Below, one piece after another: positions 1 to 62,189 of a DNA stretch of 64,000 nucleotides. This DNA is from Acidobacteriota bacterium. Its GTDB lineage: Bacteria > Acidobacteriota > UBA4820 > DSQY01. Within the stretch, counting starts at the first letter, position 1; each line of letters opens with the position of its first letter. The position numbers were made by a program, and so were the translations under genes. The DNA lies in assembly GCA_021778515.1 (NCBI GenBank), contig JAJYCJ010000004.1:7092-71091 (forward strand), written 5' to 3'. The notes beneath the pieces are model-generated. The model was not told the origin of the DNA. It saw only the letters and a list, made by a program, of their open reading frames with translations, and searched no databases.

Positions 1-974
1 GCGAGCGGCGTGACCAGGAGGCCCGCCTCGGTCTCCACGACCACCTGCCCGACGAGGCCCCGAACGAGGGTCCGCGCGCCCGTCGTGATCACCAGACAGC
101 CCCTGCACTCCTCCATCCGCCCGGGCCCCCACGCGGCGTTTCCCTCCGAATCCTTGGGGAGCAGCGCGTAGAGCGCCGGAAAGGTGCCCACGTCGCTCCA
201 GGGGAAATCGGCGGCCACGACGACGGCCAGCCGGGTCCGCTCCATGACGAGCCGGTCGAACGGGGTCGAGGGCAGGGCCCTGTACGGCTCCGGCTCGGCC
301 CCGTTCAGCCAGGCCTCGGCGGCCTCCCAGTACCCCGGACAGTGGGCGGCCATCTCCTCCCTCAAGGGCCCCAGCGGAAGCAGGAACATACCCGAATTCC
401 ACGACGCGCCGGGTTCGGCGAGGAGGACCTCGGCCCTCTCGCGGTCGGGCTTCTCCACGAAGCGGCTCACCCAGAAGCCTTCCCCCGCGGGAGCCCCCGG
501 CTGGATGTAGCCGTAGGAGGTCTCGGGGCCCGTGGGCCTGATGCCCAGGACGCCCAGCGCTCCGCGATCGCGGCACAGCCCGGCCAGCCGCCGGATCGTC
601 GCACCGAAGGCCGCGGTGTCCGGGACGTGGTGGTCCGAGGGGAGAACCAGCAGCAACCCTTCAGGCCCCGCCTTCGACCAGGCCCGCGCTGCGGCGAGGG
701 CCACGGCCGCCCCCGTGTTCCGGGCCGCGGGCTCCGAGAGAAAATTCACGCCCGGGGCCGCGCACAAGCCCTCCAGCGCCGCCGGACCCACCGCCGTGAG
801 AGATTCAGGCTCCAGCGTGAGGGCCCTCTCCACGCAGGCACCGTACAAGGCCCCCAGGGGGCCCATGGGGATGAAGGGCTTGGGGCGCGCGGGCGAGGAG
901 AGCGGCCAGAGTCGGGTCCCCGACCCTCCCGCCAGAATGGCCACGTGAAGGCGCGCCCCGCGATCCGCATTCAC
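1..974 (-). CDS. manC: Mannose-1-phosphate guanylyltransferase (GDP-mannose pyrophosphorylase), partial; C-terminus lies beyond the window start
   Basis: Minus-strand translation from the GTG at 972-974 gives VNADRGARLHVAILAGGSGTRLWPLSSPARPKPF..., the nucleotidyltransferase G-rich loop (LAGGxGTRLWPLS). The frame stays open to position 1, so the ORF is absent from the provided table because it runs off the edge. A TGA 21 nt upstream in frame makes the GTG the first possible start. Confidence 0.6.
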   Translation of the reverse strand, partial: MNADRGARLHVAILAGGSGTRLWPLSSPARPKPFIPMGPLGALYGACVERALTLEPESLTAVGPAALEGLCAAPGVNFLSEPAARNTGAAVALAAARAWSKAGPEGLLLVLPSDHHVPDTAAFGATIRRLAGLCRDRGALGVLGIRPTGPETSYGYIQPGAPAGEGFWVSRFVEKPDRERAEVLLAEPGASWNSGMFLLPLGPLREEMAAHCPGYWEAAEAWLNGAEPEPYRALPSTPFDRLVMERTRLAVVVAADFPWSDVGTFPALYALLPKDSEGNAAWGPGRMEECRGCLVITTGARTLVRGLVGQVVVETEAGLLVTPL

Positions 975-1029
975 TGCATTCCCCTCCGCATGATTCCGAG
1001 CTCCGGCTCCTTCATGGTACGCCTGGATG

Positions 1030-1533
1030 CTACTTCAGGACGAACCGGTCGGCTTCCACCGGGAGCGATCCCCCCAGGTACTCCAGGAGCAGGCGCACGC
1101 GGTCCTTGGAGGGCATGGCCTCGAGGACCGTCCCCTCCATGCCGGCGAAGACGCCCGCTTGAAACCGCACGCGCTGGCCCACTTGGAAGGCGGGGTCGGG
1201 ATCCGGGCGGAGGTAGCCGCGCCCGCCCTCGCGCTCCCGCCAGTGCTCGACGAGCTCCGGCTCCACGCAGGCGAGCTGTTCGCCGAAGGTGAGCGGTCTG
1301 AGTATCCCCGGAAAATAGCGAACCCTCGCGAGCTCCACCTGCGGCGACAGCAGGACGAAGAGGTAGCCGGGGAAGAGCGGCTGGGGCGAGGAGCCCGTGT
1401 ACCGGTTCTTCACCCTGGGGCAGTAGCCCTCGAACCCCTCCTCCCCGAGAAACACCAGGGCCATCTGCTCCTTGCGGGGTTTGGTGGCCAGAACGGCCCA
1501 GACCCGCCTGGCGCTCGACAGGTCCGCCAGCAT
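1030..1533 (-). CDS. NusG-paralog transcription antiterminator (UpxY/LoaP-like; NGN + KOW domains)
   Basis: 167 aa. WAVLATKPRKEQ matches the N-terminal NGN domain, and the C-terminus is KOW-like (GQRVRFQAGVFAGMEGTVLE). Its ATG is directly adjacent to the DegT stop. Specialised NusG paralogs are typically embedded in polysaccharide clusters. Confidence 0.6.
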   Translation of the reverse strand: MLADLSSARRVWAVLATKPRKEQMALVFLGEEGFEGYCPRVKNRYTGSSPQPLFPGYLFVLLSPQVELARVRYFPGILRPLTFGEQLACVEPELVEHWREREGGRGYLRPDPDPAFQVGQRVRFQAGVFAGMEGTVLEAMPSKDRVRLLLEYLGGSLPVEADRFVLK

Positions 1534-2697
1534 CTAGCCTCTTCCAGCGTAGAAGCTCCGGATCCCCTCGCACACCTCTTGCACCTCGGCCTCCCTCAGC
1601 TCGGCGAAGATGGGCAGGGCCAGGACCTCTGCGGCCGCGCGCTCGGTGTGGGGAAGCGCGCCCTGTGCGTAGCCGAGGAACCGGAAGCAGGGCTGGAGGT
1701 GGAGAGGTACGGGGTAGTAGATCATGGAGCCGATCTGCCGGTCGGCGAGGTGCGCCTTCAGCTCGTCCCGCCGCGCCGCGCGGATGACGAACTGATGGTA
1801 GATGTGGGTATAGCCGTCGGGAGCCTGGGGCGCCTGCACCGAGGGGATGCCCTTAAGGCCGCGCCGGTAGAGCTCCGCCACCTCGGCGCGCCGCCGGTTC
1901 CAGGCGTCCACGTGGGGCAGCTTGACCCGCAGGACCGCCGCCTGAACCTCGTCCAGCCGGGAGTTGTAGCCGATCTCCTCGTGGAGGTAGCGCTCCCTGC
2001 TCCCGTGCACGCGGAGCATGGCCAGGCGGTCGGCGAGGGCCGCATCGTCCGTGGTCAGCAGGCCGCCGTCCCCCGCCCCGCCCCAGTTCTTGGTGGGAAA
2101 GAAGGAGAAGGCGCCGAGGTGGCCCAGGGTGCCGACGCGCCGGCCCTTGTACAGGGCCCCGTAGGCCTGGCAGGCGTCCTCGAAGACCTTGAGGCCGTGA
2201 GAGTCCGCCACGGCGTTGAGGGCGTCCATGTCGGCCGGCAGGCCGTAGAGGTGAACCGGCAGCAGCACGCGGATGGGCACGCCCGTGGCGCGGTGCACGG
2301 GGAGCCCCTCGGGGCCCTTGCGGCACTCCTCCTCCAGGAAGCGCTTCACCGCGGAGGGGGAGAGGTTGAAGGTCTCCGGGTCGATCTCGGCGAAGAAGGG
2401 CCGCCCGCCCGCGTTGTGGATGGCGCCGGCCGTGGCGAAGAAGGTGAAGGAGGTGGTCAGCACGCCTTCGCCCTGTTTGAGTCCCAGGGCCCTGAGGCCG
2501 AGGAGGAGGGCGTCCGTGCCCGAGGCCACTCCCACCGCGTGGGCCGCCGCGAGATGGGCCGCGGCCTCCTCTTCCAGAGCCTTGCCGTGTTTTCCGAGGA
2601 TGAAGTGCTGGGTTTCGAAGACATCCTGAAGGGCCCGCTGCACCGCTTCGCGGATCTGGGCGTGCTGCCTCGTCAGGTCTAACACCGGTACGCTCAT
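1534..2697 (-). CDS. DegT/DnrJ/EryC1/StrS family PLP-dependent sugar aminotransferase
   Basis: Family-typical N-terminus VPVLDLTRQH...FILGK, and GSGTDAL plus a lysine-containing motif (FSFFPTKNWGG). The second ATG at 2697 has an AAGGAG RBS 9 nt upstream; the table ORF starts at 2724. Confidence 0.85.
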   Translation of the reverse strand: MSVPVLDLTRQHAQIREAVQRALQDVFETQHFILGKHGKALEEEAAAHLAAAHAVGVASGTDALLLGLRALGLKQGEGVLTTSFTFFATAGAIHNAGGRPFFAEIDPETFNLSPSAVKRFLEEECRKGPEGLPVHRATGVPIRVLLPVHLYGLPADMDALNAVADSHGLKVFEDACQAYGALYKGRRVGTLGHLGAFSFFPTKNWGGAGDGGLLTTDDAALADRLAMLRVHGSRERYLHEEIGYNSRLDEVQAAVLRVKLPHVDAWNRRRAEVAELYRRGLKGIPSVQAPQAPDGYTHIYHQFVIRAARRDELKAHLADRQIGSMIYYPVPLHLQPCFRFLGYAQGALPHTERAAAEVLALPIFAELREAEVQEVCEGIRSFYAGRG

Positions 2698-2822
2698 GGG
2701 CTTAGGCTCCTTCGACAAAGGCATGCTTATAGCACAGCGCCCCCCGCGAGTAAAGCATTTCAGGCCCCTTTGAGGGGCCGGCGGGGCCGTGGTATGGTTG
2801 GGGCAGAATCGGAGGCTCGATC

Positions 2823-3902
2823 ATGGATTCCACGGTCTTTCAGAAGCTTCTCATCAGCGCCATCCAGAGGGGCGCTTCGGACGTCCACCTGCAGACCGGC
2901 CACCCCCCGATGATGCGGGTCAACGGCGAGCTCCTGGAGGTCAAGTACCACCCCCTGGAGCCATCGGAGACGCGGGCCATCGCCGAGGAGATCATCGCCC
3001 ACACCTACCAGAAGCCCGACGTGGCCATGCTCTCGGAGCTGGACGTCTCCTACGGCATCGAGGGCCAGGGCCGCTTCCGCGCCAACATCTTCCGCCAGAG
3101 GGGCAGCCTGAGCATCGTCCTGCGGGTGATCCCCATTACCATCCAGAGCTTCGCCCAGCTCCACCTGCCGCCCGTCCTGGAGCAGATCGCCAACCTGCGG
3201 CGGGGGCTGGTGATCGTCTCCGGCGCCACGGGAAACGGCAAGTCCACCACCCTGGCCGCCATGGTGGAGTTCATCAACGAGACGCGAAGGGCCCACGTGG
3301 TGACCATCGAGGATCCCATCGAGTTCCTGTTCCGCCACAAGATGTCCATCGTGAGCCAGCGGGAGCTGGGCAGCGACACCCCCTCCTACGCCTCCGCCCT
3401 CCAGGCCGTCCTTCGCCAGGACCCGGACGTGATCCTCATCGGCGAGATGCGCGACCTGGAGACCGTGGAGACCGCCCTCAAGGCCGCCGAGACGGGGCAC
3501 CTGGTGCTGGCCTCGCTCCACACCACGGACTGCGTCAAGAGCATCTCCCGCCTCATCGGCATGTTTCCGCCGGACCAGGAGACCAGCATTCGCGGACGGC
3601 TGGCCGACGCCCTCATGGCCATCGTCTCCCTGCGGCTCATGCCCCAGAAGGGCGTGCTCGGGAGGATTCCGGCCGTGGAGGTGCTCCGCGTGACGCGGAC
3701 CATCCAGGAGTGCATCCGGGACCCCTCCAAGACCTCCGACATTCCCGAGTACATGGCCAAGGGCGCGGAGATGTACGGCATGCAGACCTTCGACCTGCAT
3801 CTGCTCCAGCTCGTCAAGGAGGGCAAGGTCGAGCTGGAGGCCGCCAAGCTGGCCTCCAGCAATCCCGCCGAGCTCGAGCGCGCCATCCTCATGGAGGGGT
3901 GA
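2823..3902 (+). CDS. pilT: Type IV pilus retraction ATPase PilT
   Basis: 359 aa. Walker A GATGNGKSTT, a PilT/GspE-family secretion ATPase fold (RFRANIFRQRG, VILIGEMRD), and a PilT-like C-terminus. GGAGG RBS upstream. Confidence 0.9.
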   Translation: MDSTVFQKLLISAIQRGASDVHLQTGHPPMMRVNGELLEVKYHPLEPSETRAIAEEIIAHTYQKPDVAMLSELDVSYGIEGQGRFRANIFRQRGSLSIVLRVIPITIQSFAQLHLPPVLEQIANLRRGLVIVSGATGNGKSTTLAAMVEFINETRRAHVVTIEDPIEFLFRHKMSIVSQRELGSDTPSYASALQAVLRQDPDVILIGEMRDLETVETALKAAETGHLVLASLHTTDCVKSISRLIGMFPPDQETSIRGRLADALMAIVSLRLMPQKGVLGRIPAVEVLRVTRTIQECIRDPSKTSDIPEYMAKGAEMYGMQTFDLHLLQLVKEGKVELEAAKLASSNPAELERAILMEG

Positions 3903-3922
3903 GGCGGGGGGCGTGCAACGCG

Positions 3923-3946
3923 AGGCGACAGTCGGTGCTCTGTCGC
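3923..3946 (+). terminator. Stem-loop downstream of pilT (ggcgacag...ctgtcgcc), no U-tract
   Basis: An 8-bp perfect inverted repeat 20 nt after the pilT stop. It is not followed by a T-run, so it is a hairpin or attenuator rather than a classic intrinsic terminator. Confidence 0.3.
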
Positions 3947-4045
3947 CGGCCGCCGGCAGCCTCCATCCCCCACCCCGCACAGCCCCGCGCATCCCACCAC
4001 CGCGAAGGACACCTGTCCAAAATAGGCCGTCTTGCCGACTCCAGA

Positions 4046-4420
4046 CCACGGCTAGGTCTGGGCCGCGCCAAGGGCGCGCCGCTGGGGGCCTGGTCCGGGC
4101 GCGTCCACGCGAGCGTGGCCGTGCTCCGTCCGCAGGCCCTCAGCCGCCCTTCGGGCGCCAGTCCCAGCCTCATCTAATGTGAACCGTCCCCCCACCCTCC
4201 ACAGGTGCGCCGGCGGCGACGGACCTCCTGCTTCGTCAGCTTTCGGCGTCCGCATCCTCAGCGTACATTCAGTACGCTTCCGGTGCGGCCGCCTCACCTT
4301 CCTCTCATGAGGCCCATCGGCGCCGGGACGCGCCTTCCTCCGCTTCGCTCCGGAAGGCAAACCCCCTCACATGCGAGCTGAAATGTTTTGGACAACCATG
4401 ACCGCGAAGGACCCCGAGGC
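4046..4420. repeat. Copy A of a ~350-bp structured repeat element (inverted relative to copy B at 43787-44156)
   Basis: The reverse complement of 4046-4360 aligns at ~85-90% identity with 43841-44156, e.g. tgccttccggagcgaagcggaggaaggcgcgtcccggcgccgatgg versus tgccttccgaagcaaagcggaggaaggcgcgttccggcgccgatgg. Weaker similarity continues to ~4420 / ~43787. An internal hairpin agcgtac-NNNNN-gtacgct keeps its stem while the loop differs (tgaat versus tccct). Table ORFs 4052..4360(-) and 43832..44062(+) are translations of this repeat. Confidence 0.7.
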
Positions 4421-4870
4421 TGCGGGCGGTTCTTGCCCTGCCCGCGGCTCCCGCCTCGCCCCCCTTGCAGGGCGGCCTTCTCCTGTGCTACACCATCCCC
4501 ATTCCCTGGCAGAGCGACACCTGAGCGCGCATTTCATCGGACCGGACGGTAAGGGCCAATGGGGACGAGCGGCCGCGCCGGCGAGAAGCCGCGCCGGCTG
4601 GGGCCCGTGCCGACCGGAGGGGGGGAGTGCAAGGTACAGAGGGGATGCTCCGGGGGGATTCCGGAAGACAACAGGAGCGTGAAGCGCCGAGGTTCGGCCC
4701 GGCTGGGTACGCGCCGAACTGCGTCCGCGGCCGTCCTTCCCTTGCATCCGGCGCCGGGTCCGGGCCTCCCCGCTTTCGGGCCGGCTTCCCGGGGGCCGAT
4801 CTCGTGACCTCCCGCCGCCCATCCGTGCCCCTCTTCGCGGGGAGGAAGGGGCCCCCGCCGCAACGCGGCG

Positions 4871-5079
4871 ACACGTGCGCAGAAATCGCCAAGTCGCCGC
4901 GTCCACTTCGTGAAAGGCGCTCAAAGATCGCCAGGTGTACGCCTCACCTTGGTGATAGGTGCGCGAGAATCGCCGAGTCACCGCTTCAACTTGGTGATAG
5001 TTGCACAGAAATCGCTAAGTTACCGCCTCCACTCGGCGAAACCTGAGCACGAATCGCCGGGTGTAGGCCTGCGCGCGGG
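4871..5079. repeat. Degenerate 42-bp tandem repeat, about 4.8 copies (consensus roughly GCrCAGAAATCGCCrAGTcACCGCyTCmACTTGGTGATAGgt)
   Basis: Units at 4877-4918, 4919-4960, 4961-5002, 5003-5044 and a partial unit 5045-5079. Pairwise identity is ~70-75% with a conserved AATCGCC core. The array lies ~190 nt upstream of the CDS at 5272. Confidence 0.75.
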
Positions 5080-5271
5080 AAAAGCAGCGCATGAAGGCGC
5101 GGATCAACGCTTCGGAAGGGGGAGAACCCGGCCCGAAGCGCGGGAATCGGTCGTGGTCGGTCCGTTATGGGGGCTCGGCGGACCGGATGAGGCACGAGAA
5201 GCGTTGGGAGGCCTTCCGGGGCCGGGGATGGTCCCCGGCGAGGGGGCCAGTTGTGCACAGAGGAGGGACAC

Positions 5272-5946
5272 ATGCGGTTGCCGAGTCAGAGCTTGAGCGC
5301 GGAGACCCTGTTGGAGACCTTCGGCGTCTATCACGCCACGCGGGTGGAGGCGGACCCGGACAAGAAGGAGATGGCGGACGCCTGGACCAAGGCGCAGGAG
5401 CGCCTGAACGAGCGGCTGAAGATGCACAAGGCCGCCCAGAAGGCCACCATGCGGGCCATGGCCGTGCGCGACGCGGAGGACGAGGCCTTCGACGACGCGG
5501 TCAAGGCCTTCGCGCTCGCCGTCCTGAGCAAGGTGAGCAACAGCCGGAAGGCGCCGCTCTTCCGCAAGTACTTCCCCGACGGCATGTCCGCCGTGGTCAC
5601 CGCCCCCCTGGAGGCGGAGCTGCAGAAGGCGGGCGTGATCCTCTCCAAGCTGTCCGAGGAGGAGGACGAGAGCCTCAAGGCCTTCAGCGGCACCCTCTCC
5701 ACCGCCATGGGCAACCTCGCCACCGCCATGGACGCCCACCGCGCCGCCCTCGACGCCGAGCTGCAGGCCTACGGCATGCTCACCACGGAGAAGGTGAACT
5801 GGCTCGATGCCTACAAGCGCAACTACCGCCAGCTCACCAGCCTCTACTTCAAGGACCCCAAAAAGGCCGACGGCTACTTCAAGCCCGCCCCCAAAGCCAA
5901 GAAAGGCAACGGGGACGAGACGCCCCCACCGGCCGCCGCGAACTGA
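5272..5946 (+). CDS. Hypothetical alpha-helical protein (no recognisable domain)
   Basis: The ORF is host-like in GC (~65%) and predicted all-helical with a Lys-rich tail. The ATG at 5272 (MRLPSQ) is preferred over the table start at 5251. It is followed by a hairpin plus short T-run near 5999-6042. Confidence 0.55.
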   Translation: MRLPSQSLSAETLLETFGVYHATRVEADPDKKEMADAWTKAQERLNERLKMHKAAQKATMRAMAVRDAEDEAFDDAVKAFALAVLSKVSNSRKAPLFRKYFPDGMSAVVTAPLEAELQKAGVILSKLSEEEDESLKAFSGTLSTAMGNLATAMDAHRAALDAELQAYGMLTTEKVNWLDAYKRNYRQLTSLYFKDPKKADGYFKPAPKAKKGNGDETPPPAAAN

Positions 5947-5998
5947 TGGAGACAGAGAAACAGAGAATCAGCGAAACAGGGAGGTAACACGCCCATCC

Positions 5999-6042
5999 AC
6001 CCCGCCCGCCCGGTCCGACCCCGGGCGGCGGGGGGCTTTTCG
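5999..6042 (+). terminator. Putative intrinsic terminator after the 5272-5946 CDS
   Basis: GC-rich imperfect hairpin cccgcccgcccgg-tccgacc-ccgggcggcgggg followed by gcttttcg. Confidence 0.3.
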
Positions 6043-6289
6043 AGGAAAAATGACCCAAATTCACGACAGGGAGGTAGGCGGTGAGAAAGGAAGAAGCGAA
6101 AGGGGCTAATAAGAATGAGCCATGTGGAACAGACGTCGTGCGGAGTTCGATATTTCCAAGTAGTGCAAAGACACGACAATTGACTCCATTCGCAGGCATA
6201 TTGGAAGGCGGGGGCATCCGAGCCCCCAAGGAGACCAAGGCCTCACATTGGAGCTAGACTGAAGACCTTAGAGCGAGGAGAGTTCTCCG

Positions 6290-9200
6290 GTGGACATTCA
6301 ATCCGCGACCTACCGTGGCTATCGAAGGCAAGCCCTATATGTTCTCTGGCGGTTGCTCACAGACGAAGATGGACATTCGCGTCTATATCGTCCAGAAGGA
6401 GAAGAGGATCTCGCAGTTCTCGATTTGAAAGAAACACTTCTGGAGGCCGTACAAGTCAAGGACTATAGTGCACCGCTGTCACTTTCGGATCTCAAGCCTC
6501 GGAGCCCGGATGGTTTCTTTGCTAGGATGAAGCAGCGACTTCACGATCATCCAGGGTGCCGACACATTCTAGCCAGCTTTGGGCGGATCGGCCCCGAACT
6601 GACTTACGCGATTGCGGCGCAAGGCTCTCTTCGGAATACCGTCGCCGCTCGACTCCATGATAGGAACCCCACAATCACATTGGCTGAAGGCGAGCGCCTG
6701 TTAGGTGAGCTAAATGATAATCTGCAATTCCTCGACGAGTCCACTATGTCAGCGGATATCAAAGCCGCGTTGGCCGACACGATGGCAGGCGGCCATTACG
6801 AAAGCACGATGAATCTGCTTATGTATTGGGTCTTTGAATCGGCCGAGCGGAAGAGCGTCCTGACAAGGGCGAGTCTTATCAAACAGATTACTCGTATAGC
6901 CGAGTATCTGGGCGTCCTTCGCGACCATAATAGGGAATGGATGACCGTGATCAGGCCACTGGAGAACAAGGCCCTCAGTCAAGATGAGTTCGACAGGCTG
7001 CGTGAAGAGTACCGCCGTGGTGCCCAGGCACGCTGGGAACACATACTTGCAGATTTGGACCACCCGCGCAAGGCGCGGTTGTCCGAGTTGCATAAAAAGA
7101 TCTCCCGTCGCTCTGTAGTAGTGGTAAGAGGTGCCTCTGGCCAGGGCAAATCATCCTTGGCGTTTCGATACATGCAAGACTATGTGCCGGACGGGCTGCG
7201 CTTCAACGTCTGCGTGGTCGAGGATAGACTTCATGCCTTAAGCATCGCCAATGCGTTGCGGGGCCACGTTGCGCGGCTTCAGCTAAGGGCAGTAGTTCTG
7301 ATAGACCTATCACCCATTGATGCGGGGTGGGTAGATTTAGCACGTGAACTCGTAAGGGGTGGAATGAAGGTGCTTGTCACGGTGAGGGAAGAAGACTTTC
7401 ATCGGGCCGCATCCATAGTGTCTGACCTGGAGTACGAGGAAGTGGTGCTGGATTCGCTTACGAAAGACGAAGCTGAGCCGATTTTCAAATCCCTTACAGC
7501 CGGAGAGCGCTTGCCCTCAACTCTCGACTTTGAGGACATTTGGTGCCGATTTACTTTGACGGAAACCGGCCCGCTTATGGAGTTTACACACCTAATAACC
7601 GAAGGGAGGACGCTCACCGAGAAGATTTCCGGGCAGATAGTACGTCTTCAAAAGGAATCCAACGACTTCAGATGTATCAACGGTATCACTGCCGCTCACT
7701 TAAGGCTGTTGGCACTTGCGGCCATAGGCAACGCCGCAGAATGCCGCATGAGCCTTAAGAGCATGTGCGGGCAGTGTGGATTGGATCCCCTTACCAATCC
7801 ACTGGCGCCTTTTGAGGGTGAGTTCCTTTTGCGGCAGGCGGAATACGGAGGCAAGACAGTGGTCGTCGGTCTGCACCCGCTTCGTTCTAAGGCGGTAGTT
7901 AGCGCTCTATTCGCGGGTTGCGAAGAAGATTGGGGGCGGTATGCAGCTAGCTGTCTGGAGCATGTACTCGACGAAGATATCGAAAGGTTCATGTTGCACT
8001 CCTTTCTGGGGCATCCAGCATGTAGCGTGTCATTGGAAGCAGCGGTCCACGAATTGAAGCTGCGTTCCTGGACGCAGGCGGGCGGCCTGGCTCGGGCCCT
8101 GGTCTGGGAAGGAGTAAATCGCTATGAAAGGGAGAATCATGAACAACTTGAGGCCGCCGTTGCTAAACACGACACGGCGTGGTGGTTCCTTTGCGATTCT
8201 CTCGTGGGCCTGGAAAGGGTCAACATAATAGAGCGAAGAAGAGAAATGGAGGAGATATCCCAGAGAGAACTGCCTTGGTTCGAGCTCACTGACAAGAAAA
8301 GAGTCTTTGATCCGCTACGCGGCTGGGCTCAGCAGATCACGCCACCATCGGGGCAACCTTCGTCAGCGTTGGATTGGATCATGCTGGGCGAACTTGCGTA
8401 CTGGATCGGTAGCAATAGCATTAGCGGTTTGCTCCACCGGGCCCTGCTGGATGTGCTTCCGACGGTTCTTCCGACAAACCTCACCATTGAGGAGTTGGGA
8501 CTGTTCATCTCTGGTCGTTATCACATGCGGGATTCCGCCTTTTTGGATTGGCATGCCCAGAAATGTGCGGAGCTCTCAGCTCGGTTCTTGCGTGAGACGA
8601 ATTCGACCTACCTAGTTGACCAGGCGGACGAAGTAAAGGTGTACTTCCCTGTGTTTTCTACGCATCATTCTACCAACAACGGGAGTGATGATAGCGACTT
8701 GCATGCCGCGGCCGTCAGGCGCATCGATTTGCTCCGGAAGCTATTTCCACAACGGGCGACGTATGGCTCGCAGGGACTTGGCATCGAGGCAGTGTCCGCA
8801 TTCTATCCCCATGACCCCACATACAAGGCGATTCCAGCCAAGAATTTGCCACCGGAAAGGGGCGTTCGACTCAATCGCATCTTCCTGAACCTCGTGGCAT
8901 TTAGGCTCCAGCGCGCCGACTCATGGAGGTCCTACGCTGAGGCGCACTTCCAACTGCGGAGCAGTATCTGTGCTTGCTTCAGGGCCCTCTACCGTGCATG
9001 GGAGTTGCTCCTTGATAGGGCAACGGACAGGAGCCGAGTTGCTCGCAAGTTGCCTATCGAAGAAGTGAACCAAGTCTCGCAGCAGTCAAAAATGCCTATG
9101 CTCCCATGCAACGCGGTCGATGAATGGGGCTTTGCATCGGAATTGCAGGGGACGGCCACGGATGAGATGGGTGGAGCCCCTGTTGATGGACGTGTCCCGC

Positions 9201-10459
9201 ATATAGCTGTTCGCGGAAGCCTAAAACGCTTCCAGCCATGGCATGAGATATGGAGGGATTACGAATCAAGTGCGAGGAATGTTGTTAGCGGGATAGGCGA
9301 TACGACGGCCTCTCTGCTGAATGGAGAAGAACCGGCTGGCCACGACTCCAGGAGCCCTGATCGTGGGCGACTACTTCTGTACAATTTGGCGAGAGCGTGG
9401 GAGGCATTAACGGGAATGCAACGTGAGTATGGGCATTGGTTTGGGGTTCATGAAGACCGCGGAAAGCTCGCCGAACTGCAGGACCACGAAGCGCGAACCT
9501 ACCGGCATCTGTGGGCCATTGCCAGTGAGGTGATTTATCCGAGAGTAAAGGATAGCCAACATAGTATCAGCGGCATCGAAAGAGAAATCTCTGTTCGACG
9601 GAGAAACTTTCTGGCTAGCCTGTCCAGAGAACTAAGTGCGGTGCTTGTAGGCGTAGGAAGCCATCGCATAGAGTGTGGACCACTAAATATCGATGGAAAG
9701 AGGTGCCTCGTGGTTGTTTGTGACCATGAATCCGCTGCCAGCATGGAGGCTCAACGAGAGGCTGTGGTGCTTGCTATTTGGCGTGCAACACGGAATGGCG
9801 GGTGGCGCCCGCTGGAATGGACTCCAATTAGCGTTGAATGGCCGCACGTCTTCGTGACGCACATTCTTCGAGGGAGGGCGCTTGCTAGTGCGGGTACCTT
9901 TCTTTCATCGTTCGTGCTTTTCGGCATTGAGAAGGACTTCGAGATCAAGGCTCACCACTTGGCAGACCAGCCAGTACCGGAGAGAGATTACTTGGCGACT
10001 GGCGTTATCCTGTGGGAGTTGCCGGTGCTATCCGGTCTTGGAGCTTTCGTGGGAAGTGTCAGCGCCTTCATGCTGACTGTCATGCAGGCCTATTCCATTC
10101 TTGCCTTAGCGCAGGAGAAGGGCCTATCGAGTGAGGACCTGGAGGCAGGCCTCGAATCGTACGGAAGCGAAGTTCGTTTGTTGCGCGAAACTGTGGTGAA
10201 TGCATTTGAAGAGTTGAAGGGACTGATGCAGGGCATGGATGCGCAGAAAGGCCTAGAGCAACTACGCGGAACGGAGTGGTCGTTGCGGCTGGAATCGCTT
10301 TGCCGAGCTCCCTTGTTACTTCCTCCCTTCGAAGATGACCGTGCTATTGTTACCGTGGCTGGCCTCGCAGAGTGGCTGGAACAATGTGAAAGAAGCCTCT
10401 CTGGAATTCGGACACTAGGTCAAGAAGTCGCGGATCTTGCCACCAAGAGAAGCGCATGA
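6290..10459 (+). CDS. Giant (1389 aa) STAND-like P-loop NTPase with an N-terminal PD-(D/E)xK-like nuclease motif; candidate Avs-type antiviral defence protein
   Basis: GTG start with a GAGGAG RBS 8 nt upstream. Walker A VVVRGASGQGKSSLAF at ~aa 270, a hhhhD Walker-B-like VVLIDLSP ~60 aa later, and a ~1000-aa alpha-helical C-terminal region. The N-terminus has a D...(Q)xK arrangement (VLDLKETLLEAVQVK) reminiscent of Mrr or restriction-endonuclease folds. GC is ~52% against ~67% in the flanks. Confidence 0.8.
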   Translation: MDIQSATYRGYRRQALYVLWRLLTDEDGHSRLYRPEGEEDLAVLDLKETLLEAVQVKDYSAPLSLSDLKPRSPDGFFARMKQRLHDHPGCRHILASFGRIGPELTYAIAAQGSLRNTVAARLHDRNPTITLAEGERLLGELNDNLQFLDESTMSADIKAALADTMAGGHYESTMNLLMYWVFESAERKSVLTRASLIKQITRIAEYLGVLRDHNREWMTVIRPLENKALSQDEFDRLREEYRRGAQARWEHILADLDHPRKARLSELHKKISRRSVVVVRGASGQGKSSLAFRYMQDYVPDGLRFNVCVVEDRLHALSIANALRGHVARLQLRAVVLIDLSPIDAGWVDLARELVRGGMKVLVTVREEDFHRAASIVSDLEYEEVVLDSLTKDEAEPIFKSLTAGERLPSTLDFEDIWCRFTLTETGPLMEFTHLITEGRTLTEKISGQIVRLQKESNDFRCINGITAAHLRLLALAAIGNAAECRMSLKSMCGQCGLDPLTNPLAPFEGEFLLRQAEYGGKTVVVGLHPLRSKAVVSALFAGCEEDWGRYAASCLEHVLDEDIERFMLHSFLGHPACSVSLEAAVHELKLRSWTQAGGLARALVWEGVNRYERENHEQLEAAVAKHDTAWWFLCDSLVGLERVNIIERRREMEEISQRELPWFELTDKKRVFDPLRGWAQQITPPSGQPSSALDWIMLGELAYWIGSNSISGLLHRALLDVLPTVLPTNLTIEELGLFISGRYHMRDSAFLDWHAQKCAELSARFLRETNSTYLVDQADEVKVYFPVFSTHHSTNNGSDDSDLHAAAVRRIDLLRKLFPQRATYGSQGLGIEAVSAFYPHDPTYKAIPAKNLPPERGVRLNRIFLNLVAFRLQRADSWRSYAEAHFQLRSSICACFRALYRAWELLLDRATDRSRVARKLPIEEVNQVSQQSKMPMLPCNAVDEWGFASELQGTATDEMGGAPVDGRVPHIAVRGSLKRFQPWHEIWRDYESSARNVVSGIGDTTASLLNGEEPAGHDSRSPDRGRLLLYNLARAWEALTGMQREYGHWFGVHEDRGKLAELQDHEARTYRHLWAIASEVIYPRVKDSQHSISGIEREISVRRRNFLASLSRELSAVLVGVGSHRIECGPLNIDGKRCLVVVCDHESAASMEAQREAVVLAIWRATRNGGWRPLEWTPISVEWPHVFVTHILRGRALASAGTFLSSFVLFGIEKDFEIKAHHLADQPVPERDYLATGVILWELPVLSGLGAFVGSVSAFMLTVMQAYSILALAQEKGLSSEDLEAGLESYGSEVRLLRETVVNAFEELKGLMQGMDAQKGLEQLRGTEWSLRLESLCRAPLLLPPFEDDRAIVTVAGLAEWLEQCERSLSGIRTLGQEVADLATKRSA

Positions 10460-10552
10460 GCCGCGGCCTGCCGACATGCCTTCTGTGATAGGTGCAGTCC
10501 TTGTGAATATTTGGGGGTAGATCGTGCATTGGCACATTGGGTTCATTCTGCT

Positions 10553-10690
10553 CGCTGCGTGGTGAGCCCTTCTTTGCGTCTCGCGTCTCGCCCTCGCGCG
10601 GCACACCTTCAGAACCCCGCGCCAGGGCCTCCAAAGCACGGGCCAGTCCCGCATCGTCCAGCTCGTGGTGGGTGACGAAACGAATGGAGG
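10553..10690 (-). pseudogene. Decayed duplicate of the 3' end (~25 codons plus 3' flank) of the threonine-aldolase gene at 12726-13757
   Basis: The minus-strand translation [24 protein letters not shown] matches [26 protein letters not shown] of the intact gene. Nucleotide identity to 12672-12805 is ~80%, with a 1-nt indel that removes the stop. Table ORF 10350..10703(-) is this fragment fused to junk. Confidence 0.7.
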
Positions 10691-10818
10691 GAAAAGGGGT
10701 CACCCATTAGTCGGCCCCTGTCAACAGGCGGACTTCCATCTTGGCGGCCTTTGCCCTTAGCCGCACTCCTCTTGCCCTTTGCACAGGGCCAGGCGGGGAG
10801 GGAGGGTCAGGGGAGGGA

Positions 10819-10878
10819 GGGTCAAGTCTTCACTGTTAGCGTCTCGGATCACCAGCCCTGAAGACCTGGCCGCGATTT
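10819..10878. repeat. Direct repeat R2 (~57 bp), second copy at 12408-12470
   Basis: caagtcttcactgttagcgtctcggatcaccagccctgaagacctggccgcgatt versus caagtcttcactgtgagcgtctcggaccactaaccctaaagacctggccccgatt, about 85% identity. The first copy is preceded by a tandem gggagggagggtca x2. Confidence 0.7.
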
Positions 10879-10989
10879 TGCGCTCCTCGACCCCTTACCC
10901 TGTCCTGCCTTCCCCCGCGTCCTTCGCGTCTCCTTGGTGAATTCTTCTGCCCCTGTGCGTGTTTCTCAGTCTGAAAGGGAGAGAACACC

Positions 10990-11442
10990 ATGGGAACGTG
11001 CAGCATCCGTCACGAAGTGGGGATCAAGGCGTCGCCGGAGGCGGTCTACGGGGCGCTGACGGAGGTCGAGACGCTGGCGGCCTGGTGGACCTCGGACACC
11101 CGCGGCGAGGGCTCGACGGTCGGGGGCGTGCTGGAGTTCTGGTTCGGCGGCTTCTGCCAGGCCTTCGAGGTGGTGGAGCTTCGGCCCGGAGGGCTCGTCC
11201 GCTGGAAGGCCACCCGGAAGGAGACCCTGGAGGAGTGGGCGGGGACCGAGGTCAGTTTCGCCCTGAGCGCCGACGAAGCCCAGTGCTGGGTGGAGTTCGC
11301 CCATTCGGGATGGCGCGAGGACACGGAGTTCTTCGCCCACTGCTCGACCAAGTGGGCGGTCTTCATGCTGAGCCTCAAGGACCTCTTGGAAACGGGCAAG
11401 GGCCGTCCCGCGCCCGACGACGTGCCGATCAACCACGATTGA
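10990..11442 (+). CDS. SRPBCC-superfamily protein (AHSA1 / activator-of-Hsp90-ATPase-like)
   Basis: 150 aa. The N-terminus IRHEVGIKASPEAVYGALTEVETLAAWW and the overall pattern match the AHSA1/START-like SRPBCC fold. Confidence 0.75.
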   Translation: MGTCSIRHEVGIKASPEAVYGALTEVETLAAWWTSDTRGEGSTVGGVLEFWFGGFCQAFEVVELRPGGLVRWKATRKETLEEWAGTEVSFALSADEAQCWVEFAHSGWREDTEFFAHCSTKWAVFMLSLKDLLETGKGRPAPDDVPINHD

Positions 11443-11617
11443 GCGGATGGAGGCCTTTGCGGCGTGATCGCGTGATCAAGAGATCAAAGGATCGGGGCGG
11501 GCCTTCGAAGAACCTCCCGCCCCCTGTTTTTCCACTGGCTTGCCCACCTGCTCGCCTCGAGACTGGGGAGGCGCGCCTGAGGGCAAAACGCAAAGGGCTC
11601 TGCGGGAGGTTGGAGCG

Positions 11618-12373
11618 ATGAGCGGGTTCGCGGCGACGAAATTCGAGTTCCGGCACCGTTTCTGGTTCATCTTCGCCATCTTCTTGATCGCGTACGAACT
11701 CGGCCACTTCTTTCCGGGCAACGCCGGCGCGGTCCTCGTGGGCCGCTTCGTCCCGAAGGGCTCACCCCTCTTCCCGTTCGGGCTGCACGCGCTCTTCGGG
11801 GTCGCGGCCCTGGTGGTTCTGGCGGGCGCTGCCCTGCGCACGTGGGGCACGGCCTACCTGAGCGCGGGGGTCATGACGGACCGCCGGCTGCACTCGGAGA
11901 GGCTCACGGCGGACGGGCCCTTCCGCTTCGTCCGAAACCCCCTCTACATCGGGCTGGTCCTGATGGCCGCAGGCCTGAGCGCGACGACCGACGTCCCGGG
12001 CGGGGTCGTGCTAGTTGTTCTCATGGTTCTCTTCGTCCTGCGTCTCGCCCTGCGGGAGGAGACCGGGCTGGCCGAGGCCCAGGGAGAGGCGTACGAGGCC
12101 TACCGGCGCCGCGTGCGGCGCTTCCTGCCATCGCTCCGGCCCCGGCTTCCAGCGTCCGGGGCCGCGCCCCTGTGGCGCCAGGCGTTCGTCGCGGAGTTCA
12201 TGGTGTGGTCCTTCGGCATCGCCCTGGTCGCCCTGGCCGTCAGCCTGAACGGGCGCCTCTTCTGGGAGGTCTTCGCCGTGGGGCTGGTCTCCGGGATGAT
12301 CACGTATTCCTTCCAGCGCCGGCGGACCCGGCCGGCCCCGAAGGCGGGAGGCGAAGAGCCCGACGCCGGGTGA
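11618..12373 (+). CDS. Isoprenylcysteine carboxyl methyltransferase (ICMT/PEMT) family membrane methyltransferase
   Basis: It has multiple TM helices and the family signature LTADGPFRFVRNPLYIGLVL (GPF/Y-x3-R-N/H-P-x-Y). The ATG at 11618 has a GGGAGG RBS 8 nt upstream; the table ORF starts further upstream at 11540. Confidence 0.75.
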   Translation: MSGFAATKFEFRHRFWFIFAIFLIAYELGHFFPGNAGAVLVGRFVPKGSPLFPFGLHALFGVAALVVLAGAALRTWGTAYLSAGVMTDRRLHSERLTADGPFRFVRNPLYIGLVLMAAGLSATTDVPGGVVLVVLMVLFVLRLALREETGLAEAQGEAYEAYRRRVRRFLPSLRPRLPASGAAPLWRQAFVAEFMVWSFGIALVALAVSLNGRLFWEVFAVGLVSGMITYSFQRRRTRPAPKAGGEEPDAG

Positions 12374-12407
12374 GGGAATAGGAAGAGCCAAGGGGGCCGT
12401 ACTGGTC

Positions 12408-12470
12408 CGGGATCAAGTCTTCACTGTGAGCGTCTCGGACCACTAACCCTAAAGACCTGGCCCCGATTCT
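12408..12470. repeat. Direct repeat R2' (partner of 10819-10878)
   Basis: See R2. Confidence 0.7.
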
Positions 12471-12510
12471 ATTTGGTTAGGGCGAATGCTCTCCTTCGAA
12501 GGCCCGCCCT

Positions 12511-12545
12511 CGTCCTCATCTCGGCATCTCCTCATCTCCTCATCT
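12511..12545. repeat. 8-bp tandem microsatellite CATCTCCT x4
   Basis: catctcgg catctcct catctcct catctcga. Confidence 0.6.
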
Positions 12546-12725
12546 CGACCTTCCTCCGTGGCCTCCGTGCCCTCCGTGGTAAATTCCATTTTCATGGGCC
12601 CGAATCGCGCTCTGGAGAGCGCTCCTACAGGGCTTTCGAGAGCCGTGTTTTCCTCTGTGTCCTCTGCGTCTCTGTGGTGAATCCGTTTCCTCGCGTCCCG
12701 CGTCTCGCCCCCGCGCGGCACCCCT

Positions 12726-13757
<1,032 letters not shown>

Positions 13758-13800
13758 GGGGCACCTCCATGAGGGGTCAGTATACGGGAGAGGCGAGAGG

Positions 13801-13880
13801 CGATGAAGGGATTGGGCGATTGAGCGATTGGGCGATAAGCGATTGAGCGATTGAGCAATTGAGCGATGAAGCGAAGGGCG
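13801..13880. repeat. Tandem 8-bp repeat GCGATTGA (about 7 units, degenerate at the ends)
   Basis: gggattgg gcgattga gcgattgg gcgataa gcgattga gcgattga gcaattga gcgatgaa. It lies in the divergent intergenic region between ltaE and the ABC transporter. The same unit recurs at 39864-39913 and 55387-55420. Confidence 0.75.
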
Positions 13881-14038
13881 AGAGGCGAAAGGCGGCCGCA
13901 GCCAGCTTCTGATCCCCAATTTCTCTGCGTCTCTGCGCCTCTGTGGTCGTTCCGCTTTTCCGATTTTCGATTTTCCCCTCCCCCACCTTGCCGCGCGCTT
14001 CCCGGCAGGGTATCCTGGGGCCGTAGAGCGCGGACGCG

Positions 14039-19149: not shown

Positions 19150-19352
19150 CTCTCGTACAGATTCCGCGAAGGAAATGCGGGTGGCTTCGGCCAAGGCCCA
19201 GATTCACGGGAGAAAAACGTTATCCCTTGGACGGGGAGGCCAAGGGCTTCTCTCTCCGAGTCGCAGGCCAAGCCTGCCGAATCGTCGCGTTGCCCTCCGG
19301 GGCCCCGCCCAACGGGCACGGCCCTCCGGGGCCCCACCCCACCCTTGGGGCT

Positions 19353-19495
19353 TCCTCCCCCGGATCAAGTCCGGGGTCGGAGGCAACCCAAATCCCTTGA
19401 CGGGTGAAGACCGTCTTTCACGGAAACTATCTTCCATCTGCCTTTCGGAGCCACTGCCATGTCCCATCGCGGGATTGGGGTCTCTTCCGGCTATG
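19353..19495 (+). promoter_or_regulatory. Conserved ~145-nt leader element (copy 1), shared with the region upstream of the TonB-dependent receptor gene (61711-61852, minus strand)
   Basis: About 75% identity over ~140 nt, for example cctcccccggatcaagtccggggtcggaggc / cctcccaggatcaagcccggggtcggaggc and cctttcggagccactgccatgtcccatcgcgggattggggtctc / cctttcggcgctacggccatgtcccatcgagggatagggtctc. Each copy ends ~95-115 nt upstream of its start codon. It contains predicted hairpins (cctcc...ggagg; tccc-atcgc-ggga). Confidence 0.45.
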
Positions 19496-24095: not shown

Positions 24096-24686
24096 TCAGG
24101 CCCCCTGGGCCAGGGCCGGTACCACGAGCTGACCCCCCTGGTTCCAGCCGCGATCCGGAGTGTGCCCGCCGAGCTGCTTCTGCATCAGCTTCCGGGCCCG
24201 GTGTATGCGAGACATGATCGTTCCGATGGGGCAGTCCATCATGTCGGCGATCTCCCGGTAGGAAAAGCCGCCTACCAAGGATAGCATCAAAGCCTCCCGG
24301 TAGCCCGGGGGGAGCGTCTCGAAGGCGTGCTGGACGTCCTCCTTCAGGATGGAGTTCATCAGCGTCGCCTCGGGGTCGGCGGGCCGCATGCCCGTGTGCT
24401 CGACCTGGCTCTCCTGCGTCTCCTCGATGGACTCGAAATCCACCTCGTTCGGCCGCCTGTGCTGTTTGCGGTAGTGGTTGATGAAGGTGTTCTTGAGGAT
24501 GCGGTAGAGCCACGCCTTGCAGTTGGTGCCGGGCTCGTATTTGTCGAAAAACCGGTAGGCCCGAAGGAACGTCTCCTGGACCAGATCCTGCGCGTCGTCC
24601 TCGTTCCTTGTGATCTTCAGCGCCAGGTTGTACAGGAAGTCCAGGTGGATGAGGGCAGTCTGTTCAAAATAGGCTCGGGATACCAT
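24096..24686 (-). CDS. ECF-type RNA polymerase sigma-70 factor
   Basis: Region 2 ([44 protein letters not shown]) and region 4 ([40 protein letters not shown]). Confidence 0.85.
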
Positions 24687-34948: not shown

Positions 34949-35170
34949 GCGGTGATCTCCCGCACGGGAGTATATCCAAAAGCCTCCGGCCCGGCAAACC
35001 GAGGGCAGTTTGGTGGAGGGTGGAGGGTGGAGGAGCCGTCGTCCGAAGGGCGGCCGCGGGCATGCGAATGGAGCGCGGCCGCGCTCACTTGGACGCGCCC
35101 GGGCCAGGCCTCCAGCGCCGCGCCAACGGCGCGCCGCTTGTGCTACACTAAGCGGGTTCGGAGGAGCGCA

Positions 35171-39878: not shown

Positions 39879-39913
39879 GGGATTGGGCGATTGAGCGATT
39901 AAGCGATTGAGCT
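39864..39913. repeat. Tandem 8-bp repeat GCGATTGA family (about 6 units)
   Basis: gggattga gggattgg gcgattga gcgattaa gcgattga gctaag. It overlaps the 3' end of the OPT gene and its downstream region. Confidence 0.7.
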
Positions 39914-43786: not shown

Positions 43787-44156
43787 GGACCATCGTGTCC
43801 CATGGCTTTCTAAAATGGCTCCAGACCTCCCTTGAGCGGTCTGCCTTCCGAAGCAAAGCGGAGGAAGGCGCGTTCCGGCGCCGATGGCCCTCATGCGAGG
43901 AAGGTGAGGCGACCACACCGCAAGCGTACTCCCTGTACGCTGAGGATGTGGGCGCCGAAAGCTGACGAAGCAGGAGGTCCGTCGCCGCCGGCGCAAACAC
44001 GGACGGTGGGGGTCAACGGCACACACCAGGAAAGCCGGGCCTGGCGCCCAAAGGGCGGCTGAGGGCCTGAGGACGGAGCGCGGCCACGCTGGCGTGGGCG
44101 CGCCCGGCTCAGGGCCCCAGCGCCGCGCCAAAGGCGCGGCCGAGGCCCGGCCACGG
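43787..44156. repeat. Copy B of the ~350-bp structured repeat element (partner of 4046-4420, inverted)
   Basis: See copy A. It lies immediately downstream of the rpoC terminator hairpin on the minus strand. Confidence 0.7.
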
Positions 44157-44159
44157 ATC

Positions 44160-44194
44160 GGAAACGGCGAGGGGGCGGGATCGCTCCCGCCCCC
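44160..44194 (-). terminator. Stem-loop downstream of rpoC
   Basis: Minus strand: gggggcgggagcgatcccgccccc then tcgccgtttcc (weak U-tract), 30 nt after the rpoC stop. Confidence 0.4.
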
Positions 44195-55386: not shown

Positions 55387-55420
55387 GGCGATTCGGCGAT
55401 TGGCGATTCGGCGATTAGGA
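55387..55420. repeat. Tandem 7-8-bp repeat GGCGATT(C/G), four units, in the rplK 5' leader
   Basis: ggcgattc ggcgattg gcgattcg gcgattag, directly upstream of the rplK start. It shares the GCGATT core with the repeats at 13801 and 39864. Confidence 0.65.
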
Positions 55421-61710: not shown

Positions 61711-61852
61711 CAAGTGCATCGAGAGACCCTATCCCTCGATGGGACATGGCCGTAGCGCCGAAAGGTAACCACCCAGTGATTTTCTGAAAAACCGATCTCT
61801 ACCCGCCAACGGATTGGGGGCCTCCGACCCCGGGCTTGATCCTGGGAGGAAA
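61711..61852 (-). promoter_or_regulatory. Conserved ~145-nt leader element (copy 2), upstream of the TonB-dependent receptor gene
   Basis: See the copy-1 entry at 19353-19495. About 75% identity, in the same orientation relative to the downstream gene. Confidence 0.45.
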
Positions 61853-62189
61853 CCCACAAGGGTAGGGCGGGGCCCAGAAGGGCTAGACGTCGATTCAGCA
61901 GGCTTGGCCTGCGCACCGGACGGCAAATACCTGGGCCCTCCCCGGCCTAGTGGCAAGGCCTTTCCTCCGTGAACCTGAACCTGGACTGAAGCCCCCCGCA
62001 TTTCCATCGCGGAATTTGGGAGAGAGGGAGACGGGGAAAGACAAGGCCTAAGGTTGGAATGGGGTGCGGCCACGAAGACGGTGGAGGGTGGAGGGGTTGG
62101 GGAATGGCCGTTTCCCCCAGAATTCCTTCGATTCGATGGTGGATGATGAATGAGAGGCGGAGCCCGCCGGGGTAGTGTCAACTTTCTTT

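Follow-up and report, generated by a model that had tools for sequence, protein, structure and literature searches.

The structured repeat beside pilT and rpoC in an uncultured Acidobacteriota genome is very probably a MITE with IS4-family ends

Just beyond pilT (2823-3902, plus strand), and again beyond rpoC on the opposite strand, an Acidobacteriota genome carries a conspicuous, palindrome-rich repeat. The 64,000-nt window – by which we mean the whole stretch of DNA that was analysed – comes from a metagenome-assembled genome (MAG) and has a G+C content of 65%. Is this repeat a gene for a structured RNA that has multiplied, or a mobile element that happens to fold? The original prediction preferred a structured RNA and argued against a miniature transposon on the premise – a false one, as it turned out – that terminal inverted repeats (TIRs) were absent. 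The repeat is, with high probability, a 393-bp non-coding, non-autonomous DNA transposon (MITE) whose ends are those of IS4-family (IS4Sa-like) insertion sequences. Families of this sort are commonplace among mobile DNA, and no result obtained here demonstrates an RNA gene.

The unit had been described as about 350 bp long and present twice. The pair is real, but the element measures 393 bp (4008-4400), and a third, partial copy lies at 35012-35133. The features of the window that bear on the argument are the following, L005 being a syntenic contig discussed below.

2785..2793, minus strand: empty target site, a single ACCACGGCC; the same 9-mer is duplicated around a 392-bp copy in L005
3999..4007, no strand: left target-site duplication of copy A, ACCGCGAAG, identical at 9/9 positions to 4401-4409 and directly abutting the element
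4008..4400, plus strand: full-length MITE copy A, 393 bp, spanning HMM positions 1-393 (nhmmer score 411.8 against the family profile, aligned with 21 other copies)
4008..4025, plus strand: 5' TIR of copy A, GACACCTGTCCAAAATAG, mutated in the first 4 nt relative to the family consensus CATGCCTGTCCAAAATAG
4050..4169, plus strand: module 1, the first long imperfect palindrome, made of nested GC-rich hairpins (RNAalifold consensus helices 3-7)
4207..4331, plus strand: second long imperfect palindrome, holding the hairpin AGCGTAC-loop-GTACGCT at 4260-4278 (RNAalifold helices 9-11)
4332..4358, plus strand: small hairpin 3, CCTTCC...GGAAGG (RNAalifold helix 12)
4383..4400, plus strand: 3' TIR of copy A (ATGTTTTGGACAACCATG), resembling the right ends of insertion sequences (CATTGCTGTCCAAAACAG in locus L154)
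4401..4409, no strand: right target-site duplication of copy A, ACCGCGAAG
35012..35133, minus strand: MITE remnant C, about HMM positions 57-192, both ends lost (repeat search and nhmmer)
43801..44171, minus strand: MITE copy B, 5'-truncated, HMM positions 24-393 (nhmmer score 322.7)

Globally aligned, 4046-4360 and the reverse complement of 43841-44156 are 84.7% identical (85-90% had been put forward), and the repeat search of the window resolves the similarity into two inverted arms, 4189-4363/43838-44012 (175 nt, 89%) and 4026-4168/44034-44176 (143 nt, 80%). The weaker homology reported to run some 60 nt further outward also exists, but it consists of the variable 3' hairpin and the TIR of the element itself; outside the element, the flanks of copies A and B are 50% identical, which is chance level. 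Copy A departs from the family at its outermost four bases, which read GACA rather than CATG. The exact PilT protein recurs in the NCBI assembly GCA_027388615.1 and on three ENA contigs, and copy A is identical in all of them. Copy B has lost its 5' TIR and retains a decayed 3' TIR (CCATTTTAGAAAGCCATG); it starts 54 nt past the rpoC stop codon (44225, minus strand), directly behind a GC hairpin that abuts the break. Remnant C lies between the divergent genes accD (minus strand) and a PASTA-domain gene (plus strand), and at the syntenic site upstream of accD in contig L019 a two-ended, 287-bp derivative stands in its place, synteny stopping at the element. Copy A is thus an insertion of intact length between perfect duplications, whereas truncation has left copies B and C as immobile remnants. 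As for the placement of the copies 3' of gene terminators, there are hairpins downstream of both pilT and rpoC, yet a scan for terminators returned none in 3800-5300 or at the rpoC-proximal site.

Once the copies are aligned together with their flanks, the family has clear ends: 5'-CATGCCTGTCCAAAATAG and CTGTTTTGGACAGCCATG-3', forming an 18-bp inverted repeat with a central mismatch. These TIRs are present on 17 full-length and 13 variant copies, and the 17 full-length ones – 85-90% identical to copy A – share a sharp start and stop that correspond to window positions 4008 and 4400 (blastn, nhmmer profile). Target-site duplication, a check proposed at the outset, gave a positive answer, with ACCGCGAAG on both sides of copy A. 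Across the window and the related MAGs, the duplication is perfect (9/9) in 15/30 two-ended copies and matches at 7-8 of 9 positions in 8 more; in most of the others it is shifted by one base, or the contig is a short-read one and probably chimeric. Even a mini copy that has lost the palindromes and kept the TIRs (L054) carries AGGGCGCCTT on both sides. Of the three options in the original prediction, the MITE-like one is therefore correct; it is backed by TIRs, 9-bp duplications, an unoccupied target site and IS4-family elements that share its ends.

The 15 perfect duplications have a G+C content of 44%, against 65% for the window, and are weakly palindromic (A occupies position 1 in 13/15 and position 8 in 10/15, and T occupies position 2 in 9/15 and position 9 in 11/15). 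The placement of copies after pilT and rpoC reflects this preference for AT-rich intergenic targets and has no link to either gene. The window also contains intergenic tandem arrays with an 8-bp period, of the GATTGAGC / TCCTCATC type, at 12513-12546, 13799-13874, 39854-39912 and 55387-55416; in related loci, many target duplications of the MITE and of insertion sequences lie inside such arrays (ATGATGGAT, ATCCCTCAT, ATCATCCCC), which may be preferred targets.

How far the family has spread was gauged by scanning one genome per species with an exact 27-nt pattern, taken from the part common to all three window copies. The scan returned 63 loci, 23 in JAJYLT01, 8 in JBMFSH01 and 8 in JBAWEQ01, the remainder being scattered single hits. 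The repeat is accordingly a dispersed family, with at least 39 loci (about 40) in three Acidobacteriota MAGs and another 19 in metagenomes, and all copies are intergenic; in viral contigs, the interior motif of the MITE was not matched. Among ~70 copies placed by a crude GC3-based gene call, orientation is unbiased: the upstream gene runs in the same direction in 25 cases and in the opposite one in 38, and all four arrangements occur. The shared polarity of copies A and B relative to pilT and rpoC, correctly noted at first, is therefore a coincidence.

Movement of the family can be read from an empty site. The contig L005 (JAJYLT010000018) is syntenic with window 3-3920, at 94% identity; between its degT-like gene and pilT lies a 392-bp copy flanked by ACCACGGCC on either side. 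In the window, the sequences that match the two flanks of this copy (94.8% and 97.6% identity) overlap at 2784-2793 with nothing between them, and the 9-mer occurs singly. At the other end of the time scale stands an ancient insertion common to two species-level MAGs (L023 and L039), both flanks of which are orthologous. Here the flanking coding sequence is ~95% identical, the flanking intergenic sequence 80-86%, the first 50 nt of the element 66% and its interior ~90%. Taken together, the empty site and the shared insertion indicate that the family has been active over a long period, and that at least some copies are old, with decaying ends. The corresponding empty site for copy A is unreadable in L005, because the whole of window 3920-12730 is absent there.

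In L005, which lacks this 8.8-kb segment, pilT is followed by ~150 bp and then by the gene found at window 12726-13919. The segment holds copy A at its left edge and a 1389-aa ORF at 6290-10459 with an unusually low GC3 (0.58) and no Pfam hit on record, as well as a duplicated gene 3' end (10570-10686 resembles 12687-12804); in appearance it is either an island that was acquired or an indel specific to the lineage. In the long intergenic region downstream of pilT, a 42-bp tandem repeat is present in 3.8 copies (4875-5033), and near window 5165 two public contigs from the same strain break off, which suggests a further assembly-breaking repeat there. A second inverted repeat pair, unrelated to the MITE, links 19233-19384 and 61820-61942 (75-83%; I4/I5); it shows distant similarity to a recurrent sequence flanking MITE copies at metagenome loci, and is probably another interspersed repeat family. 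Yet another, younger repeat family is represented by a sequence of ~114 bp found at 98-100% identity at many loci of the MAG JAJYLT01 (L035, in its right flank, as well as L026, L029, L040, L047 and L052).

The MITE family itself evolves through the gain, loss and swapping of modules. Two-ended deletion derivatives measure 126, 217, 287 and 331 bp, and longer variants 465-980 bp. In L061 and L046, an alternative hairpin (GCTTTTCGC...GCGAAAAGC) replaces hairpin 3; in L023, it is present in addition to the canonical one and beside it. The longer two-ended variants, which contain extra modules (this alternative hairpin being one), occur in L023 (6305-6769), L006, L048, L034, L065, L072 and L104.

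The presence of TIRs and target duplications raises the question of which transposase acts on them. Scanning metagenomes (JGI/ENA contigs) with the 18-nt TIR pattern returned 112 loci, of which 19 carry the MITE. Four others (L078, 1414 bp; L154, 1370 bp; L172; L113) combine the 18-nt left end of the MITE with an inverted right end, CATTGCTGTCCAAGATAG or CACTGCTGTCCAAGATAA, and an IS4 transposase, and in L091 the 18-mer left end lies next to a partial transposase match. All four encode the transposase, which measures 399-417 aa in copies with an unbroken ORF. The insertion sequences (ISs) in L078, L154 and L172 are 1.37-1.41 kb long, and their left end is identical to the consensus of the MITE 5' TIR – an identity that, for the first five IS copies, is partly one of construction, as they were fished with that very 18-mer. 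The IS in L078 is flanked by ATCCTTCAT and ATCATTCAT. The copy in L113 (1122-5887) extends over ~4.8 kb, its transposase gene being split by an insertion of ~3.4 kb. The transposase matches Pfam DDE_Tnp_1 (PF01609) and DUF4372, as well as the NCBIfam model NF033592, 'IS4 family transposase' (269 and 256 bits, with a cutoff of 115), and the IS4 signature Y-2-R-3-E-6-K can be seen as YRDRWEIELFFKVLK in the L078 ORF.

Because this first set had been fished by its end sequence, a second, independent route was taken through protein homology. The transposase belongs to a protein family of ~8000 clusters at E<=1e-60, mostly on contigs of IS length. Two members that were looked up, P0061 (L180-L182) and P0094 (L183), have the termini CACACCTGTCCAAAATAG and CATACCTGTCCAAGATAG, and in L180 and L181, which represent the same insertion, the element is bounded by a perfect 9-bp ATTGAAAAT duplication. 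Same-ended ISs with 9-bp duplications thus exist in other metagenomic contigs, at 41-63% GC. The nearest named plasmid relative of the transposase is ISPosp4-like, with 39% identity, and plasmid hits to the IS4 family are all distant (<=41%).

The published ranges for the subgroup IS4Sa (De Palmenaer, Siguier and Mahillon 2008; Table 1, PMC2266710) are CA------T for the ends, 8-10 bp for the direct repeats and 1150-1750 bp for the length. The partner IS, with CATGCCTGT... ends, 9-bp repeats and a length of 1370-1414 bp, is within all of them; on published ends, repeat and size ranges, its features therefore fit IS4Sa. Like other members of the subgroup, the putative parent has a single transposase ORF with DDE and YREK motifs, whereas the window element itself has no transposase.

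Within the window and ~0.5 Mb of related Acidobacteriota loci, tblastn found no IS4 transposase homologue, and none within the MITE copies, in line with the original description of the element. The missing homologue counts against the MITE/IS4 reading, although MAGs usually drop IS copies during assembly; a partner IS in the host lineage is therefore putative. A TIR search for the parent IS in the window and the 63 genome loci gave 24656-24674 as the sole look-alike; this 13/15 match to the MITE end lies within the N-terminal coding region of a minus-strand gene and was judged to be due to chance. Comparison of the interior of the MITE with those of the ISs detected no similarity beyond the ~18-nt TIRs; this, too, counts against the reading, as internal deletion alone would not turn any of the IS copies found into the MITE. 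A further 204-bp element in L103 (763-966, on a contig of 57% G+C) has the same TIRs as the MITE around an unrelated interior, which implies that these IS4-type ends have yielded more than one MITE family.

In the mechanism we propose, an IS4-type DDE transposase supplied in trans would bind both ends of the MITE and then excise or copy it. Insertion would proceed through a staggered 9-bp cut, the repair of which would generate the 9-bp duplication, and the preferred targets would be AT-rich, weakly palindromic (5'-AT.....AT-3') intergenic DNA. Judging by the shared ends, the transposase clade described above probably provides this activity, and the internal GC-rich palindromes are probably passenger sequence. 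If co-transcribed with pilT or rpoC, they could serve as mRNA hairpins, by analogy with other bacterial MITEs.

It is this folding capacity that lends some appeal to a different reading, which we consider quite unlikely: that the element or its interior is a structured sRNA gene family, or a 3'UTR-derived sRNA, with hairpins kept for an RNA function in trans or in cis and with mobility secondary or lost. The element does fold more strongly than shuffled sequences, but it does so on both strands (z = -5.0, -4.3 and -5.1), as DNA palindromes should; module 1 (4050-4169), with a single-sequence z of -5.0, even matches itself on the opposite strand (nhmmer). The hairpin at 4260-4278 that had been cited as compensatory-style variation does have the 7-bp stem AGCGTAC/GTACGCT in both copies, with the loops ATTCA and AGGGA (TGAAT and TCCCT on the other strand), but a loop that varies over a fixed stem is not compensatory. 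Across the 22-copy alignment, standard pairs occupy 98% of cells and both-side changes occur at 8 pairs, compared with 2.4 in shuffles; pair 46-160 is altered on both sides in 4 copies, and columns 249-283 switch from G-C (14 copies) to A-U (8) with no half-compensated copies. Nevertheless, 56/99 predicted pairs are invariant, the RNAalifold covariation term is -0.07, and the few covarying pairs behave as inherited subfamily markers: the orthologous L023 and L039 copies differ at them, and gene conversion between copies accounts best for this difference. On the A-strand, about 31 G-U cells were counted against about 17 A-C cells, but as a strand indicator these non-independent counts are not significant. 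Rfam 15 at the gathering threshold yields only 5 tRNAs in the window, with no hit at E<=1 in 3900-4500, and a scan for sigma-70-type signals found no promoter-like or terminator-like site at the copies. Together with the lack of orientation bias and the spread of two-ended derivatives devoid of most of the interior, these results leave the structured-RNA preference unsupported. One observation that the plain MITE reading does not explain is a deficit of private substitutions, which amount to 0.26 per paired as against 0.55 per unpaired column (p = 5e-6) and reach, in the interior, only about a quarter of their frequency in the TIRs/terminal 40 nt. This signal is real, is unexpected under simple neutral decay of a passenger and counts against that reading; it could stem from constraint, from gene conversion or from the removal of variants by short-read assemblers, as de Bruijn assemblers that pop low-coverage bubbles in multi-copy repeats would be expected to produce just such a deficit. 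Being confounded by gene conversion and possibly by bubble-popping, the selection test is not relied upon here, and at the orthologous locus the interior (~90%) is intermediate between intergenic flank and coding sequence. The same deficit, with the pairing kept through the G-C to A-U switch and the replacement of hairpin 3 by a different hairpin at the same position in L061 and L046 – each of which might also be cited for an sRNA – hints at a selected module, that is, an RNA hairpin cassette stabilising or attenuating neighbours (e.g. pilT and rpoC), or a protein-binding site, spread by an IS4-type transposase; this, too, we regard as unlikely.

Two further readings concern the kind of mobility, or whether there was any. 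GC-rich imperfect palindromes with modular variants, in numerous intergenic copies, could bring to mind palindromic elements of the REP/BIME or IS200/IS605 type (REPINs or PATEs), for which a tyrosine (Y1/HUH) transposase would recognise hairpins rather than TIRs. It is established, however, that elements transposed in this way (IS200/IS605, REP/RAYT) neither duplicate their target nor possess TIRs, whereas 9-bp duplications and 18-bp TIRs are the rule here, the TIRs are those of DDE IS4-family elements, and derivatives without palindromes but with TIRs, such as the L054 mini copy, are still flanked by a duplicated target; we therefore see next to no chance of such an origin. Equally improbable is that copies A and B, instead of being independent insertions, were left over from a larger segmental duplication or from a duplicated coding region, the latter originally named as the finding that would overturn the prediction. 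Copy A does lie at the edge of the 8.8-kb segment missing from L005, and that segment does contain other short duplications (families D5-D7), but the similarity between A and B ends at the element boundaries, the flanks beyond being no more alike than chance, and dozens of copies elsewhere have the same ends in unrelated contexts; such sharp common boundaries already refute the idea. A coding origin fails as well, and the initial description of the repeat as non-coding stands: there is no 3-base periodicity and no conserved ORF, and indels of 1-2 nt break the frame.

As a MITE, the element has familiar counterparts in Correia (Neisseria), RUP (Streptococcus pneumoniae), ERIC/IRU (enterobacteria) and Nezha (cyanobacteria). 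Like them, it is short, non-coding, multi-copy and intergenic, with IS-borrowed TIRs, target-site duplications, size variants arising by internal deletion and a strongly folding interior. It differs in being longer than most (393 bp compared with roughly 100-200 bp), in having an interior, unrelated to the partner IS, that combines two long GC-rich palindromes with a small hairpin, in duplicating 9 bp rather than TA or 2-3 bp, and in its host, a clade of uncultured Acidobacteriota. Effects on transcripts are documented for Correia and ERIC, and by analogy it is possible that the hairpins described here affect neighbouring transcripts.

Within the IS4 family, a parallel is offered by MIC231, a set of mobile insertion cassettes and MITEs that derive from IS231 in the Bacillus cereus group. 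Both are non-autonomous, with IS4-family ends (5'-CAT...) around an unrelated passenger, and MIC231 is mobilised in trans; the Acidobacteriota element belongs to a different subgroup and phylum, and carries non-coding palindromes where MIC231 carries genes. IS231 makes repeats of 10-12 bp (Table 1, PMC2266710). With REP/BIME and REPIN, finally, the element shares GC-rich intergenic palindromes in a modular arrangement, but REP sequences are RAYT-dependent and lack the TIRs and target duplications that it possesses.

What we describe is therefore a MITE/IS4 pair that had not been catalogued before, from a clade of Acidobacteriota that is uncultured and has received little study; the family is new, its kind well known. 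The value of identifying it is mainly one of annotation: it accounts for a conspicuous repeat beside the core genes pilT, rpoC and accD, and guards against miscalling it as an sRNA or an ORF. If the interior were under selection, which the present data do not establish, the family would be an example of a regulatory hairpin cassette spread by a transposon. The identification further draws attention to the element as a cause of broken contigs and rearrangements in these MAGs: copy A borders the 8.8-kb indel, and synteny breaks off at copy C. Lastly, with one insertion that predates the split of two species-level MAGs and one that is polymorphic between lineages, the family is usable as a marker of strain and lineage history.
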